A stretch of 10,524 bases of DNA from a virus (IMGVR_UViG_2609459794_000002:1-10524), one strand, 5' to 3'; counted from the stretch's first letter, positions 1,122 through 10,524 are shown. Program-made: numbers and translations. The notes: generated from the letters alone by a model not told the origin.

Positions 1122-1236
1122 ACACCGAACCTGCCCCTTTGGAATGGGCCTTTGAGGATACCAGTTAGTGCTGGCGAGCCTCGGTGGGCTGGTTTCCTGT
1201 GCGGCAAAGGTTCATTTCAAAGAGTAGGTACACGCT

Positions 1237-1734
1237 ATGAAATCATTAACCCTCTTCAATCAAGCAATTCGTATCGGTGAAGATGGCATGATCTGCCTCA
1301 CTGATATGTGGAAAGCCAGTGGTAAAAGTGAATCTGAATCGCCTTACCACTACCTGCGAAACAAGCAGACCAAAGAGTTCTTAGCCGAGCTGGAGAAAAA
1401 CCACGAATCTGTGGTTTTTACTGAGCGCGGTGTACACGGTGGAACATATGGCGGGAAGTTTGTTGCTTACGATTATGCGGCTTGGTTAAACCCCGGATTT
1501 AAATATGCAGCCTATAAAGTCCTGGATGACTACTTCACCGGAGAACTTCAGCATCGCAACAGCTTAAGTGCACAGCTCAATATGAAGTGTCATGAGTTTG
1601 ATCAGAAAAAAGATATGGCGAGCTTCTGCGGACAAGGGCTGGCGGCATGGCGCTATACGAAGCCAGTGTTGGTCGCTGAGATTAACTCCCTGGCTAACCA
1701 GCTGCAGATTACGATCCCCGGGCTTCCGGGATGA
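1237..1734 (+). CDS. KilA-N domain-like protein (phage antirepressor-type DNA-binding domain)
   Basis: 165 aa. The N-terminus IRIGEDGMICLTDMWKASGKSESESPYHYLRNKQTKEFLAELEK fits the KilA-N/APSES pattern (IR..DG...T.m.KA.GK....wlr...t.efl). Upstream AGGT Shine-Dalgarno-like motif. Confidence 0.6.
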   Translation: MKSLTLFNQAIRIGEDGMICLTDMWKASGKSESESPYHYLRNKQTKEFLAELEKNHESVVFTERGVHGGTYGGKFVAYDYAAWLNPGFKYAAYKVLDDYFTGELQHRNSLSAQLNMKCHEFDQKKDMASFCGQGLAAWRYTKPVLVAEINSLANQLQITIPGLPG

Positions 1735-1988
1735 GTGATCGTGTCATTGAATGCGCCTCCAGAGCGGGGCGTGACTTCTCAGAGTTCATGAAAGGTGAGA
1801 AGGGCATGATGGAAGCATTGTCCTCGGTGGATGAGTTTGGCGAGCAGCTGCGCCTCAACGGCTGTGTCAATCATCACTTTGTTAGCTACATGATGCGGAA
1901 CTCGATCATGCAGGCATTCATGGACATGGCAAAAGCCGAGAGGAAAGAAGAGCGCCGGCGTAAGCGAGCGGAAGCAAAAGCGAAGTAG
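1731..1988 (+). CDS. Hypothetical protein, start overlaps the KilA-N stop (ATGA)
   Basis: 85-aa ORF with a strongly charged Lys/Arg/Glu C-terminus. The ATGA overlap suggests translational coupling. No family recognised. Confidence 0.45.
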   Translation: MSDRVIECASRAGRDFSEFMKGEKGMMEALSSVDEFGEQLRLNGCVNHHFVSYMMRNSIMQAFMDMAKAERKEERRRKRAEAKAK

Positions 1989-3363: not shown

Positions 3364-3883
3364 ATGGAAGTCAACAAAAAGCAGCTGGCTGACATTTTCG
3401 GTGCGAGTATCCGTACCATTCAGAACTGGCAGGAGCAGGGAATGCCCGTTCTGCGAGGCGGTGGGAAGGGTAATGAGGTGCTTTATGACTCTGCCACCGT
3501 CATAAAATGGTATGCCGAAAGGGATGCTGAAATTGAGAACGAAAAGCTGCGCCGGGAGGTTGAAGAACTGCGGCAGGCCAGCGAGACAGATCTGCAGCCA
3601 GGGACTATTGAGTACGAACGCCATCGACTTACGCGTGCGCAGGCCGACGCACAGGAGCTGAAGAATGCCAGAGACTCCGCTGAAGTGGTGGAAACCGCAT
3701 TCTGTACTTTCGTGCTGTCGCGGATCGCAGGTGAAATTGCCAGTATTCTCGACGGGATCCCCCTGTCGGTGCAGCGGCGTTTTCCGGAACTGGAAAACCG
3801 ACATGTTGATTTCCTGAAACGGGATATCATCAAAGCCATGAACAAAGCAGCCGCGCTGGATGAACTGATACCGGGGTTGCTGA

Positions 3884-3909
<26 letters not shown>
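3364..3909 (+). CDS. nu1: Terminase small subunit Nu1
   Basis: 181 aa, MEVNKKQLADIFGASIRTIQNWQEQGMPVLRGGGKGNEVLYDS..., near-identical to lambda gpNu1 as recalled, with the N-terminal winged-HTH region. Lambda-like overlap with A. Confidence 0.95.
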
Positions 3910-6890
<2,981 letters not shown>

Positions 6891-6966
6891 AACCCTTGCT
6901 GCGTCTGGAATGTCGTTTTCCATGCTTTTGATGACCGTTCATCACCCTTCCAGTTTTTCGCGGTTT

Positions 6967-7020
6967 TGTGTATTGCAATGTGTATTGCAAATTGGCGATC
7001 GGGATGGGTGTGTATTGCAA
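6967..7020 (+). repeat. Three direct copies of TGTGTATTGCAA (6967-6978, 6979-6990, 7009-7020) immediately upstream of the integrase gene
   Basis: Read directly: two perfect tandem 12-mers plus a third copy 18 bp downstream, ending 18 bp before the int ATG. Confidence 0.85.
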
Positions 7021-7038
7021 ATCTCTTGAGGGCTTTTA

Positions 7039-8280
7039 ATGGCTATTGAAAACAAACTCAGTGACAAACTGTTAAAGAGTCTTGTCGGAAAACGGCAGGA
7101 CAAACAAAAAACAATAGCGGATGGGCGCGGGTTGTCTGTGCGTGTAAGCATGGTTGGGGGGATCAGCTTTGTTTTTTACTATCGTCTTGGTGGCAGGGAA
7201 TCCCCTCCGGTATGGCTTACACTTGGTCGCTATCCTGACATGTCTCTTGCAACGGCCAGGCGCATGCGTGATCAGTGCCGTGAATGGCTGGCTGAAAATC
7301 TGGACCCCCGCAGGCAAATAAAACTTGCTGCCGAAAAAACTATGCAACCAGTGACCGTAAGGGATGCGCTGTTTTACTGGTACGACAATCACGCCACAAC
7401 AGCCAGAAAAGAGCATGAATATTTAATAAAACGATTTGAAAAGCATATCTTCCCCTATATCGGTGATATGGCTATAGAACAGTGCAAATTACACACATGG
7501 CTTACCGTCTTTGACAGGATCAAAAAAAATGCGCCTGTTATGTCTGGTGCAATTTTTCTTGATATCAAACAGGCGTTGCGTTTTTGTCGCGTCAGGCAAT
7601 ACATCGCGTGCGATCCCTTTGGAGATATTAACGTAAGTTATGTCGGGCGCTCATCCGGTATAAGGGATCGCGTTCTTAATATCAATGAAACCGCTGATGT
7701 ATGGTCTTATGCTTACGGTAATAATTTGCTAACTCTGTCATCAATATATAACCGAAGAATAATGGTTATCTGCCTGGTGTTTGGTTGCCGACAGCAGGAG
7801 GCGAGGCTATCCACCTGGGACGAATGGGATTTAAAAAACTGGGTATGGACAGTCCCAAAAGAGCACAGCAAAAACAAGGAGGCTATAGTAAGGCCTGTTC
7901 CTGACGGAATAAAACAATGGATCGTTAATCTTTACGCAGAAACAAAAAATCGCGGTTATGTTGTCGGTTGTGCTTTGCAAAGGGCGACAATAACAGGGGC
8001 TGCAAACAGAATATGCAGGCGTCTTGGTCATGATACTAATGGCTTGTGGTGCATACATGATTTCAGGCGCACATTTTCCACTACGCTTAATGATATGGGG
8101 GCGGATCCTTATATTGTCGAACTTCTTTTAGGTCATAAAGTGAAAGGGGTTGCTGGTGTTTACAATAAAAGCAGGCATATAAAGAAAAAACTTGAGGTGC
8201 TTAATATGTGGGTTAATTACCTTAATACGATAGCAGGATTTAACAACAACGTTATCGAGCTTAATAAAGAGGTGGTGTGA
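7039..8280 (+). CDS. int: Tyrosine recombinase / phage integrase (P4-like family)
   Basis: 413 aa. N-terminal arm-binding-like region (IADGRGLSVRV...FVFYYRLGGRE...LTLGRYPDMSLATARRMRDQ...LDP). C-terminal catalytic signatures: IHDFRRT (His-x-x-Arg), LLGH, and a Tyr in GVYNKS. GAGGG Shine-Dalgarno 7 nt upstream. Confidence 0.9.
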   Translation: MAIENKLSDKLLKSLVGKRQDKQKTIADGRGLSVRVSMVGGISFVFYYRLGGRESPPVWLTLGRYPDMSLATARRMRDQCREWLAENLDPRRQIKLAAEKTMQPVTVRDALFYWYDNHATTARKEHEYLIKRFEKHIFPYIGDMAIEQCKLHTWLTVFDRIKKNAPVMSGAIFLDIKQALRFCRVRQYIACDPFGDINVSYVGRSSGIRDRVLNINETADVWSYAYGNNLLTLSSIYNRRIMVICLVFGCRQQEARLSTWDEWDLKNWVWTVPKEHSKNKEAIVRPVPDGIKQWIVNLYAETKNRGYVVGCALQRATITGAANRICRRLGHDTNGLWCIHDFRRTFSTTLNDMGADPYIVELLLGHKVKGVAGVYNKSRHIKKKLEVLNMWVNYLNTIAGFNNNVIELNKEVV

Positions 8281-8281
8281 T

Positions 8282-8539
8282 ATGGCAATTTATTCTCTTG
8301 TTGATGAAAACGATTTGCGCACAATGAAGGACATTGATCGGTTCATTCGTGAAAAAGAGTGCATAGCACTTACCACGCTGGCAAACTCAACACGCTGGAA
8401 AATGGAGCAGGCAGGTAAATTCCCGCGACGTATCAAGATCGGTGAACGTGCTGCAGGGTATCGACTTTCAGAGGTTCAGGCATGGATCCGTGGTGAGTGG
8501 CATCCTGGGTGGAAACCTGGAAAAACAAAACAGCAATAA
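8282..8539 (+). CDS. alpA: AlpA-family transcriptional regulator / excisionase-like protein
   Basis: 85 aa starting 1 nt after the int stop. LANSTRWKMEQAGKFPRRIKIGERAAGYRLSEVQAWIR fits the AlpA / MerR-like excisionase HTH pattern. Confidence 0.75.
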   Translation: MAIYSLVDENDLRTMKDIDRFIREKECIALTTLANSTRWKMEQAGKFPRRIKIGERAAGYRLSEVQAWIRGEWHPGWKPGKTKQQ

Positions 8540-8552
8540 CCAGTAAATAATG

Positions 8553-8575
8553 CCCCTCATCACGAGGGGTTTTTT
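8553..8575 (+). terminator. Rho-independent terminator after alpA
   Basis: Perfect hairpin CCCCTC-ATCAC-GAGGGG (8553-8569) followed by TTTTTT. Confidence 0.7.
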
Positions 8576-8595
8576 GTCTATAAGGTAAAAACGCG

Positions 8596-9174
8596 ATGAA
8601 TAAAAATATTGCCGTGACGGGCAAGGGGTACGCTCGTCCAGTGAAAAAATTCTGCGATATTCGTGATCTCGTCGTTCTGCGCTTTGATAGTGTGAACGTT
8701 CGTGTGGTGTATCTGAACGGCGATCCGTGGTTTGTTGCAAAAGATGTTTGTGCTGCGCTGGAACTAACCAATTCGCGTACGGCGTTGCAGATGCTTGATG
8801 ATGATGAAAAGGGAGTAAATTTAACTTACACCCCAGGAGGAAATCAGAATATGAGAATTATCTCTGAGTCAGGTTTCTACAAACTAATAGCCCGCAGCCG
8901 CAAAGCAACGACGCCTGGCACATTTGCTCATCGTTTCAGTAACTGGGTATTCAGAAATGTGATACCAGGTATCAGAAAAACGGGGACTTATGGTATCCCG
9001 TGGGGTGCATTACAGGTTTTTCCCCGCCGTAAAGAGCAATATCAAATAAGTGCCAGCGAGAAGGGGAGGGAGCTACAGGCATGTAAGCGCAAAAAGCGTG
9101 AGCTGGAGGAAGAAGAAAAAACGCTGATACGTGAATATCAGCCTGAGTTTTACTTTGGTAACCGCATTCAGTGA
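8596..9174 (+). CDS. Bro-N domain protein (phage antirepressor-like)
   Basis: 192 aa. DPWFVAKDVCAALELTNSRTALQMLDDDEKG...RIISESGFYKLIARSRKATTPGTFAHRFSNWVFRNVIPGIRKTGTY fits the Bro-N consensus. The C-terminus is charged and coiled-coil-like (KRKKRELEEEEKTLIRE). Confidence 0.8.
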   Translation: MNKNIAVTGKGYARPVKKFCDIRDLVVLRFDSVNVRVVYLNGDPWFVAKDVCAALELTNSRTALQMLDDDEKGVNLTYTPGGNQNMRIISESGFYKLIARSRKATTPGTFAHRFSNWVFRNVIPGIRKTGTYGIPWGALQVFPRRKEQYQISASEKGRELQACKRKKRELEEEEKTLIREYQPEFYFGNRIQ

Positions 9175-9203
9175 CAAAACAAAGGCGACCGCAAAAGGGT
9201 CGC
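9174..9203 (-). terminator. Terminator-like hairpin between convergent genes, oriented for the minus-strand transcript
   Basis: Perfect 7-bp stem GGCGACC / GGTCGCC with a 7-nt loop (9183-9203). On the minus strand it is followed by TTTGTTTTG. It lies between the Bro-N stop and the stop of the minus-strand 59-aa ORF. Confidence 0.45.
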
Positions 9204-9270
9204 CAGTGGGAACAAGGGAAAACAAAAGCATCACCAACAATGCCACATTTGCGGCTGGTGGGCAATGTGA

Positions 9271-9450
9271 TCAGTCAGATTTGGTTCGTTCCAAGGTTTG
9301 CAACGAGAGCTTTTTCCTGTGCTCTTTAAGGAATTTCTCAAGAGCAAACGAACAAGGTGCGAATCTTTCTGATTCATGTTCATGCGCTATATTTTTGCGT
9401 CGTCTCTTACGAGTTGGTGATGGTGTTTTGGTTGATTCTGTGTCGCTCAT
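9271..9450 (-). CDS. Small highly basic hypothetical protein (59 aa), not in the supplied ORF track
   Basis: Hand translation of the minus strand: MSDTESTKTPSPTRKRRRKNIAHEHESERFAPCSFALEKFLKEHRKKLSLQTLERTKSD. AGGA 8 nt upstream of the ATG. Lies 57 nt downstream of the 101-aa gene on the same strand and is followed by the convergent hairpin. Confidence 0.4.
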   Translation of the reverse strand: MSDTESTKTPSPTRKRRRKNIAHEHESERFAPCSFALEKFLKEHRKKLSLQTLERTKSD

Positions 9451-9507
9451 GGTGCTGTCCTGTAAAGCAATGCGCCTGCGTTCCTCAAACTATGGCGCTG
9501 ATATTGG

Positions 9508-9813
9508 CTATTCATGCTCTTTGACCTTGCGTCGCTGGAGTTCTTCACGCGCGACGGTGACGAGTTGCCCGATCTCCTCGGCTGCTTTGATGCCGATTTG
9601 TTCGACCTTAGCCAGGGCATCCAGTGACGACACAAGGGGATTTTCTCCGCTGCCTTCTGCTTGGCGGCGGGCTATTTCTCCGCGCATGGCGGTTACGATA
9701 AATCCGGCATTGCTTTCACCGTCCAGCTTAACGGATTCCATCCCTTGCATAACATCTAGTGGGACTCTGACAGTTGTCAGTTGTGATTTTGCGTTTTTGT
9801 TAGCCGTTGCCAT
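9508..9813 (-). CDS. Hypothetical regulator with an RHH-like N-terminus (101 aa)
   Basis: GGAG Shine-Dalgarno 9 nt upstream of the ATG. TTVRVPLDVMQGMESVKLDGESNAGFIVTAMRGEIARR resembles a ribbon-helix-helix fold. Transcribed divergently from the operator region. Confidence 0.55.
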   Translation of the reverse strand: MATANKNAKSQLTTVRVPLDVMQGMESVKLDGESNAGFIVTAMRGEIARRQAEGSGENPLVSSLDALAKVEQIGIKAAEEIGQLVTVAREELQRRKVKEHE

Positions 9814-9834
9814 TTCTGAAACTCCTAATCATCG

Positions 9835-9912
9835 GTGTGTTTCAGTATACACAAAAAAAGAAATACAAAAAGCCTTGACGTGTGTTTCATGCGCTCATAA
9901 CATGAAACACAC
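9835..9912. promoter_or_regulatory. Divergent promoter/operator region: perfect 12-bp inverted repeat with 9-bp spacer (9880-9912), a third half-site at 9836-9845, and candidate -35/-10 elements
   Basis: GTGTGTTTCATG (9880-9891) and CATGAAACACAC (9901-9912) form the palindrome. TTGACG (9875-9880) with a 17-bp spacer to TAACAT (9898-9903) is a candidate plus-strand promoter overlapped by the palindrome. The minus strand has a TATACT -10-like hexamer next to the third half-site. Confidence 0.55.
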
Positions 9913-10003
9913 CGAAAGGATTGTTGAAATACAAAGAGCAACGCCCCGCAGTGCTGGGAACACATACGGGGCGTCTAACCAACAACGTAAACTAGGAGCC
10001 GTT

Positions 10004-10177
10004 ATGGTTGCTGTAAATCATATACCACACCTTGTACACACACAAACGGCCTTTGTGTGGCGTTTTCTGGCACTGAGTGCCGGAGAATCTCAAATCATCC
10101 ACGTAACCGCCTGGACGGAACGCGAAGCGCGTAGCCGTTGCCCGTCCGGTTGTGTTGCTGTATTCGCTGCAAAAATC
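10004..10177 (+). pseudogene. 5' part of an unknown gene, apparently interrupted by the IS1 insertion
   Basis: ATG at 10004 preceded by AGGAG with a 5-nt spacer. The ORF (MVAVNHIPHLVHTQTAFVWRFLALSAGESQIIHVTAWTEREARSRCPSGCVAVFAAKI) runs straight into the IS1 terminal inverted repeat at 10178. Confidence 0.4.
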
Positions 10178-10524
10178 GGTAATGACTCCAACTTATTGAT
10201 AGTGTTTTATGTTCAGATAATGCCCGATGACTTTGTCATGCAGCTCCACCGATTTTGAGAACGACAGCGACTTCCGTCCCAGCCGTGCCAGGTGCTGCCT
10301 CAGATTCAGGTTATGCCGCTCAATTCGCTGCGTATATCGCTTGCTGATTACGTGCAGCTTTCCCTTCAGGCGGGATTCATACAGCGGCCAGCCATCCGTC
10401 ATCCATATCACCACGTCAAAGGGTGACAGCAGGCTCATAAGACGCCCCAGCGTCGCCATAGTGCGTTCACCGAATACGTGCGCAACAACCGTCTTCCGGA
10501 GCCTGTCATACGCGTAAAACAGCC
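10178..10524 (-). mobile_element. IS1 insertion sequence, partial (right end inward; continues past the window edge)
   Basis: Begins with the IS1 terminal inverted repeat GGTAATGACTCCAACTTATTGATAGTG. The minus-strand translation is the InsB C-terminus (...[109 protein letters not shown]). Confidence 0.9.
10193..10524 (-). CDS. insB: IS1 transposase InsB, C-terminal part (N-terminus outside the window)
   Basis: The minus-strand frame is continuous from the window edge through the track ORF 10193..10459. Sequence recognised as IS1 InsB. Confidence 0.8.

Follow-up and report, generated by a model that had tools for sequence, protein, structure and literature searches.

What is the small pair of reading frames that follows the lysis genes in this lambdoid prophage: one broken gene or two, how might it be expressed, and to what end? 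The question is raised by positions 1237-1988 of IMGVR_UViG_2609459794_000002:1-10524, a stretch of 10,524 nucleotides (nt), hereafter the window, that covers the late region of a lambdoid Escherichia coli prophage. Here an open reading frame (ORF) of 165 amino acids (aa) with an ATG start (ORF1; 1237-1734, + strand) is followed by one of 85 aa, also starting at ATG (ORF2; 1731-1988, + strand), and the two share an ATGA start/stop overlap at 1731-1734 (+ strand), a candidate site of translational coupling. The initial annotation had described a KilA-N-like gene with a separate small partner beginning in its stop codon, placed downstream of Rz/Rz1 and two terminator-like hairpins, and had offered as an alternative a single antirepressor-like gene split by a frameshift. 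Both the overlap and the position behind the two hairpins (1066-1090 and 1097-1114) are found as it described them. We find that the pair is best explained as an accessory cassette of two genes, conserved in lambdoid and P22-like phages and occupying the variable slot that separates their lysis genes from the terminase genes, and we give this explanation as a whole, its mechanism included, a probability of roughly 55%.

The genes themselves are not new. Judged by identities of 95-98% (95% between ORF1 and hkbK), they correspond to hkbK/hkbL of coliphage HK620, which are already catalogued as accessory genes. The region is matched by 267 phage records, the pair is present in 521 of 5426 complete E. 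coli genomes (about 10%), and it is carried by Stx1 and Stx2 phages (1717, 2851 and the WGPS series), Shigella phage Ss-VASD, ECP1, Dewey, several Salmonella phages and Klebsiella phages. Identity to the region is 99.9% on several RefSeq E. coli chromosomes and 98.4% in phage PhiR49_1. As the pair is common and annotated in hundreds of genomes, finding two genes simply confirms current annotation; what goes beyond it is only a leader RNA predicted to occlude the Shine-Dalgarno sequence of ORF1 and the strict association of ORF2 with KilA-N genes.

Results

The KilA-N assignment of ORF1 stands well above the Pfam cut-off. KilA-N (PF04383) is matched with 57.9 bits against a cut-off of 23.8 (E = 1e-15), ORF1 residues 8-101 (nt 1258-1539) aligning to positions 7-106 of the 107 in the profile, and ORF11CD3 (PF10549) is matched with 50.5 bits against a cut-off of 25 (E = 2.4e-13), residues 109-161 (nt 1561-1719) covering the full profile (positions 1-54 of 54). 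ORF1 also matches phrog_129, labelled 'transcriptional regulator' (3.1e-61). The AlphaFold2 model of ORF1, with a predicted local distance difference test score (pLDDT) of 85, has an alpha/beta domain at residues 1-84 and helices at 86-131 and 134-156, that is, a 46-residue helix and a second one folding back on it, the ORF11CD3 part forming a helical hairpin. Residues 1-84 are modelled as a beta-beta-alpha-alpha-alpha-beta-beta-alpha unit (pLDDT 78-92), for which the best Foldseek match in the PDB (E = 0.4) is not significant.

ORF2 matches over its full length phrog_875, a family of unknown function (5.6e-54), and has no Pfam family and no relative in NCBIfam or the PDB. Its AlphaFold2 model (pLDDT 92.7) consists of three helices (residues 3-20, 26-42 and 48-84), the third of which is long and ends in the tail KAERKEERRRKRAEAKAK; the charged tail described in the initial annotation is thus found as a strongly basic C-terminus. 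Identity among ORF2 copies is 54-100% across Enterobacterales, with an invariant core ECASRAGRDFS..GEK..GC.N. The ratio of nonsynonymous to synonymous substitution rates (dN/dS) is 0.08-0.10 in the comparisons with the HK022 and Klebsiella copies, in which dS is close to saturation but not saturated, and ORF2 is under purifying selection. The family is tiny: among 1.84 billion proteins it forms only 21 clusters at 50% identity, every one from Enterobacterales, and a scan of genome contigs contributed 6 loci only. Because of the profile matches together with the conservation and dN/dS of ORF2, neither reading frame is a chance ORF.

Searches beyond these families were negative. Sequence searches of the PDB with ORF1 and ORF2 gave nothing significant, the NCBIfam search gave nothing, and Foldseek searches of both models against the PDB, and of the ORF2 model against BFVD, returned generic helical bundles or insignificant winged helix-turn-helix and LAGLIDADG matches (E at least 0.18). 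A zinc site in ORF2 formed by C8, C45, H48 and H49 was considered and rejected: C8 is missing from both remote homologues, P0188 and P0191, and the second of these has neither C45 nor H48.

The basic tail itself varies. Among near-identical ORF2 copies (window 1960-1988; loci L014, L023, L034 and L047) the number of Ala-Lys repeats differs, with variants such as ..AEAKAK and ..AKAKVK and proteins of up to 95 aa, which suggests slippage at a short tandem repeat and a tail tolerant of length change.

Could the two reading frames nevertheless be halves of a single antirepressor-like gene, split by a frameshift or a sequencing error at 1731-1734? They overlap by 4 nt on the same strand, a few database entries, such as the 123-aa P0001, contain ORF11CD3 sequence continuous with ORF2 sequence, and the phrog_129 profile, at 273 positions, is longer than ORF1. 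However, ORF2 homologues (n = 138) are almost all stand-alone proteins of 83-87 aa, and the longer ones are singletons with a frameshift (P0001), a readthrough (P0002) or an upstream start call (P0103). The fused homologues that the initial annotation had thought worth looking for occur only as such singletons, with scrambled junctions, and elsewhere there are two genes. The homologues of ORF1 measure 165-189 aa, longer ones representing N-terminal over-extensions or recombinant tails, and the longer phrog_129-type proteins have a KilA-N+P63C architecture and not that of ORF1 joined to ORF2. ORF1 covers the whole of ORF11CD3 and ends at the motif QLQITIPGL, which is conserved at the stop even in relatives of 50-58% identity.

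The junction is equally consistent. In 92 ORF2 loci, drawn from annotated phages, IMG/VR and GTDB genomes, ORF2 is a separate gene (83-95 aa) that begins at or just after the stop of the KilA-N gene 5' of it, and the ATGA overlap is retained in nearly all KilA-N+ORF11CD3 contexts, including a Klebsiella copy (76%/70% identity) that keeps it despite a different junction sequence, CCATGAAT. ORF2 has a dN/dS of about 0.1 in its own frame, and the Prokaryotic Genome Annotation Pipeline (PGAP) annotates two genes, a 'KilA-N domain-containing protein' and a 'hypothetical protein', in every one of the 521 complete E. coli genomes with the pair. From the two-gene junctions, the homologue lengths, the end motif of ORF1, the dN/dS and the PGAP annotation we therefore reject the frameshift hypothesis, to which we leave only a very small probability; on comparative evidence ORF1 and ORF2 are to be regarded as two separate genes, both under purifying selection, and not a broken one, which was the preferred reading of the initial annotation.

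Around the junction and the 3' end, two further elements were considered. A GC-rich hairpin at 1716-1730, at the ORF1/ORF2 junction, was rejected, its stability being no greater than that of shuffled sequences (z = -0.77). Just 3' of the ORF2 stop a repeat search identified an inverted repeat (1987-2028, + strand) with 15-nt arms that are 87% complementary; no T-run follows it and the terminator scan did not flag it, and it may be the 3' end of the cassette or a stabiliser hairpin. Convincing operator-like motifs were not found by the repeat search of 1000-2300.

The neighbourhood of ORF2 is strict. At every ORF2 locus examined the gene lies directly 3' of a KilA-N gene, its start overlapping or abutting the stop of the latter, and this holds for two upstream architectures, KilA-N+ORF11CD3 and KilA-N+P63C, whose KilA-N domains are 22% identical. 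The KilA-N+P63C gene (243 aa) precedes ORF2 in HK022, HK97, the mEp235 group and three other genera, with the junction TGA-TC-ATG and no ATGA. Behind the Rha or P22_AR_N genes of the same slot ORF2 was not seen, and none follows the Rha gene of the prophage in strain 210205630 (L100). Klebsiella phage RAH1 has the ORF1-ORF2 pair together with its upstream block among the tail genes, and the unit is therefore mobile. In the remote members P0188 and P0191 an ORF2-like domain (hhalign probability 96.6%, 35% identity over 57 columns) is fused to T5orf172/MUG113; P0188 lies directly 5' of a KilA-N+P63C gene, beside Arc/Arc/Bro-N genes, and P0191 is found in the lysis-terminase slot of another phage. 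Because two KilA-N architectures precede ORF2, and because of the T5orf172 fusion, we place ORF2, by comparative sequence analysis, in the Bro/KilA domain-shuffling network, and the neighbourhood and the remote fusion support a putative functional link between ORF2 and KilA-N proteins.

A small ORF of about 57 aa also stands in ATGA overlap after KilA-N+ORF11CD3 in Erwinia phage phiEt88 and its like (L096 1193-1370; L097 3067-3183). It was tried as a distant ORF2 homologue and dismissed, as hmmsearch and hhalign detected no relation; it may be an analogous partner.

Upstream of ORF1 we recognise a block that comprises a terminator, a second hairpin and a leader of about 107 nt. The intrinsic terminator T1 (1066-1090, + strand) has an 8-bp G+C-rich stem, GAGCCTCGC-GAT-GCGGGGCT, with a GAU loop, followed by TTTTT; in every context, the tail-gene location in the Klebsiella phage included, its hairpin is preserved and shows compensatory changes, and the equivalent site in phage mEp235 is annotated as a rho-independent terminator. 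The second hairpin and terminator T2 (1097-1124, + strand; stem 1097-1114, then GTTTTTTACA) come from the terminator scan, and a GCGC..GCGC hairpin is conserved at this place in other variants. The structured 5' leader of ORF1 follows (1129-1229, + strand) and is predicted to fold into a long irregular hairpin of 6+18+4+7 bp with an apical stem. In its base helix ACCUGC (1129-1134) pairs with GUAGGU (1224-1229), the Shine-Dalgarno region, which stands 8 nt before the ATG. The minimum free energy is -48.7 kcal/mol on the + strand (z = -3.26) versus -40 kcal/mol on the - strand (z = -2.41).

When the 200 nt 5' of the KilA-N start were aligned from seven contexts, the conserved non-coding block ended exactly at the ATG. 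With nhmmer we found 49 distinct versions of the block among the loci analysed, some loci having two or three, and each version ends at a start codon, which belongs to a KilA-N+ORF11CD3, KilA-N+P63C, P22_AR_N+ORF11CD3, KilA-N-alone or HNH endonuclease gene, the latter being inserted in front of a KilA-N gene. The block also precedes a Rha gene that sits in the same slot of another E. coli prophage (covariance model E = 1.6e-23), and blastn finds it in 92 phage records. Most versions fold individually into the same hairpin, the 3' strand of its base being the Shine-Dalgarno sequence AAAGG/AGGU, and where this sequence is placed further 3', the 5' side has an insertion to match. The upstream block with its leader travels with the cassette, and this is fresh with respect to the existing annotation.

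Support for the fold comes from covariation. Initial RNAalifold runs on wide MAFFT alignments gave partial structure only, with misregistered columns, and a narrower seed with a covariance model was used instead. The model R1, built from eleven other versions with the window copy excluded, matches window positions 1133-1239 on the + strand (E = 2.4e-5 to 8.6e-5). In the leader alignment A12, which is fitted to the model and whose counts for the main hairpin accordingly lean toward the structure, 95.2% of cells are paired, as opposed to 39-52% when the partners are slid, both sides change in 28 of 31 pairs, and the covariation score is 0.523 versus at most 0.117, a value that none of 500 shuffles reaches. 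RNAalifold on a plain MAFFT alignment (A8) gave a further, long-range pairing (1123-1186, + strand) between the 5' flank CACCGA (1123-1128) and the apical UCGGUG (1181-1186), with 92% of cells paired versus 28-59% when slid and a covariation score of 0.489 versus at most 0.177 (0 of 500 shuffles). This helix is as well supported as the main hairpin and, because it crosses the latter, is either an alternative conformer or a pseudoknot. Many G-U pairs, together with the weaker fold and weaker model scores of the - strand, point to an RNA read from the + strand. Rfam 15 gave no match at the gathering score in the window, with only chance-level hits to unrelated families at 1000-1300 (E 0.2-0.5), and none for the leader of six other loci.

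We tentatively propose, at somewhat less than even odds, that the leader represents an undescribed class of cis-regulatory RNA: a portable 5' module that sequesters the Shine-Dalgarno sequence, acts as a translational switch (RNase III-dependent or conformational), serves as a recombination handle for exchange of N-terminal DNA-binding domains, and is shared by the KilA-N, Rha, P22_AR_N and HNH genes of the post-lysis slot in lambdoid and P22-like phages, with ORF2 as a dedicated partner domain of KilA-N.

The slot between Rz and terminase is a swap hot-spot for Bro-network genes, all of which stand behind the same leader. It holds a Rha gene in strain 210205630 (L100 11606-12231), and one Salmonella contig (L098 1567-3534) has four genes in a row, namely KilA-N+ORF11CD3, P22_AR_N+ORF11CD3, KilA-N+ORF11CD3 and KilA-N. 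Inserted HNH endonuclease genes separate the leader from the KilA-N gene in phage Dewey and L090. L007 (1283-2504) is also among the loci of this hot-spot, and in a related phage the slot hosts hicAB.

On the + strand of the window lie the lysozyme gene R (83-580), Rz (565-1035) with the Rz1 lipoprotein gene embedded in it (791-982) and, beyond the cassette, Nu1 (3364-3909), the terminase gene A (3884-5809), W (5806-6012) and the portal gene (from 6009). Two small genes between the cassette and Nu1 are on the - strand, a DUF1398 gene (2275-2700) and a DUF3950/YlcI gene (2742-2975). The DUF1398 (YbcV-like) protein matches phrog_413, 'head protein' (1.1e-89), a label that fits poorly with the opposite orientation of the gene and its place between lysis genes and terminase, and that may be an inherited mis-annotation.

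A co-oriented island breaks the lambda-type portal gene B at about 6845, close to codon 279 (the portal and island occupying 6009-10524), with a tyrosine integrase gene (7039-8280, + strand), alpA (8282-8539, + strand), a gene for a Bro-N protein (8596-9174, + strand) and a YlcI/YnfO-like gene (9508-9813, - strand). Upstream of the island the portal frame has a nonsense codon at 6288-6290, TGA versus TGG in the intact portal gene of AR_0077, and the gene is therefore doubly inactivated in this copy. The portal-island junction is common to 64 complete E. coli genomes. The island of strain 210205630, with a length of about 10.9 kb, carries int, alpA and genes for Bro-N, an icd-like protein, primase, single-stranded DNA-binding protein (SSB), capsid, decoration and terS, after which the 3' part of the portal gene resumes. 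An ORF of 88 aa in the window (10193-10459, - strand) presumably corresponds to the C-terminal part of IS1 InsB, and for this reason the island here seems to be cut by an IS1 element soon after the YlcI-like gene, as opposed to the intact island of strain 210205630. By its gene order the island would be a helper-embedded phage-inducible chromosomal island (PICI) of the kind described in PMC10111431. Fourteen PICI sites and a putative B:Phage_portal_2:21 site are listed there, and the present site in B may differ from them.

Discussion

How would such a cassette be expressed? Our promoter scan of 1036-1237, a crude consensus search by which a weak or activator-dependent promoter could be missed, found no sigma-70-like promoter on the + strand, and as none is seen behind the two terminators, the cassette is probably read only by Q-antiterminated late transcription. 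Translation of ORF1 would then be gated by opening or cleavage of the leader, and the routes we hold most likely are cleavage of the long helix in the manner of RNase III or a change to the alternative pairing of 5' flank and apical region. Phage leaders that occlude the ribosome binding site and are opened by RNase III are known, the lambda N leader being an example. ORF2, the ATG of which has no good Shine-Dalgarno sequence in front and overlaps the ORF1 stop, is for these two reasons likely to be made by termination-reinitiation, at a fixed ratio to ORF1. The KilA-N protein would bind DNA, probably as a dimer formed via the helical hairpin, and the ORF2 protein would act with it as a cofactor or modulator. 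The module should be dispensable for virion production, and its accessory nature is seen in another prophage of the same type, where a Rha gene replaces the pair in the slot, and in HK97, which grows with an ORF2 frameshifted in its C-terminal half. Its target would most likely be other DNA in the cell, such as co-resident prophages, satellites or superinfecting phages. Our best reading of the locus is thus an accessory module that binds DNA, is transcribed late and is gated at the level of translation, and BstA-like defence, a killer/antidote pair and a classical antirepressor all appear less likely than a dimeric regulator with its cofactor.

Should the KilA-N protein be a killer or abortive-infection effector, ORF2 would neutralise it or confer immunity. 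Expression of P1 KilA is lethal, a 4-nt overlap between a small and a larger gene is typical of toxin-antitoxin operons, and hicAB occupies the same slot in a related phage. In addition, a KilA-N-like N-domain is present in BstA, a prophage-encoded abortive-infection protein (PMC8585504), and the only PADLOC hit is a short match of the KilA-N core of ORF1 (about 30 residues) to the candidate PDC-S22 (8.8e-9). However, the BstA profile in PADLOC does not match ORF1, which at 165 aa versus 307 aa has neither the BstA C-terminal domain nor a two-domain architecture of about 300 aa, and Pfam, NCBIfam and PADLOC contain no toxin or antitoxin family that is matched. The obligate co-occurrence expected of a type II toxin-antitoxin pair is also lacking, KilA-N genes being intact where ORF2 is absent, truncated or frameshifted: an unrelated ORF follows the KilA-N+ORF11CD3 gene in Cronobacter, a Salmonella contig (L098) retains an ORF2 remnant of only 15 residues, and in HK97 the C-terminal half of ORF2 is frameshifted beside an intact KilA-N gene. 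Two terminators, the lack of a detectable promoter and a buried Shine-Dalgarno sequence further argue against the expression in lysogens that defence would need, and we consider a defence or toxin-antidote function improbable. A classical antirepressor that inactivates a CI-type repressor of its own or a neighbouring prophage, with ORF2 as helper, we hold slightly less probable still. KilA-N and ORF11CD3 do belong to the Bro network, which includes known antirepressors (PMC10111431), several weak PHROG matches are labelled 'anti-repressor' or 'Rha-like regulator', Arc/Arc/Bro-N genes adjoin the remote ORF2-like gene with its neighbouring KilA-N gene in an arrangement resembling an immI region, and trans-acting antirepressors that coordinate co-resident prophages are documented (PMC3121763). 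But PHROG labels are inherited annotations, the antirepressor-type domains P22_AR_N, P22_AR_C, ANT, AntA and Bro-N have no Pfam match in ORF1 or in ORF2, and a late-operon position behind terminators would be too late for inducing the own prophage.

About as improbable as a defence function is that ORF1 and ORF2 are functionally independent morons, brought together by shared history and module exchange in a recombination hot-spot. The slot is indeed mosaic, holding Rha, P22_AR_N, HNH or hicAB genes in different phages, ORF2 remains 86-94% identical while the gene upstream is swapped for a KilA-N gene of only 22% identity, and the leader and ORF2 could be flanking homology for exchange. Against independence, ORF2 never follows a gene other than KilA-N in the tabulated loci and is absent after Rha in strain 210205630, the two genes change location jointly, each of the two contexts keeps its stop/start overlap or 2-nt spacing, and the 35%-identical ORF2-like domain again adjoins a KilA-N gene.

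We favor the regulator with its cofactor, but several points weigh against it. That ORF2 stays 86-94% identical behind either an ORF11CD3-type or a P63C-type KilA-N gene argues against a tightly co-evolving protein interface and fits module exchange at the gene boundary. KilA-N+ORF11CD3 genes occur without ORF2 in Cronobacter, in phiEt88 and beside the Salmonella remnant, Foldseek found no significant structural relative for either model, and literature searches found no functional study of the hkbK/hkbL pair. The lean of the main-hairpin counts toward the structure and the crudeness of the promoter scan count here as well, and DNA binding, dimerisation, contact between the ORF1 and ORF2 proteins, late-only transcription, RNase III cleavage and reinitiation are all steps that we infer.

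The leader, being common to many Bro-network genes, suggests that these accessory genes share a post-transcriptional control, and it offers a testable mechanism for domain shuffling in the network. The strict association of ORF2 with KilA-N genes provides a handle for assigning a function to KilA-N proteins in lambdoid phages, including those that carry Shiga toxin, in which the pair is retained.

Among known systems the closest is hkbK/hkbL of HK620, from which the pair in the window differs in no essential respect: the two genes, their order, the ATGA overlap and the Rz-terminase slot are all shared. Related named pairs are HK97 p60/p61, mEp235 gp59/gp60 and the 'kilA' gene of Stx phage 2851 with its neighbour; in HK022, HK97 and mEp235 a KilA-N+P63C gene replaces KilA-N+ORF11CD3 before the same ORF2. 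BstA resembles ORF1 in being prophage-encoded with an N-terminal KilA-N-type domain, but it is a single gene expressed in the lysogen with an internal anti-BstA DNA element, and ORF1 is half its size and lacks its C-terminal domain (PMC8585504). Control of Bro-network genes by RNA has precedents in P1 c4-icd-ant and P4 CI/seqA-eta (PMC10111431), to which we liken the present leader, since there too the structure of a leader RNA governs a Bro-network gene that is coupled to a neighbouring gene. In those systems the coupled small gene lies upstream, whereas in the window it lies downstream, and the leader of the window has no similarity to the Rfam C4 or isrK families and no antisense RNA partner was identified for it. 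The domains of the Bro/KilA network described in 2002 (cited in PMC10111431 and PMC8585504) comprise KilA-N, Bro-N, Rha, P22_AR_N, ORF11CD3, P63C and T5orf172. ORF1 joins two of them, and its relatives exchange the N-terminal domain (Rha, P22_AR_N) before the same ORF11CD3. ORF2 is not among the described domains and has no Pfam family, but an ORF2-like domain is fused to one of them, T5orf172.

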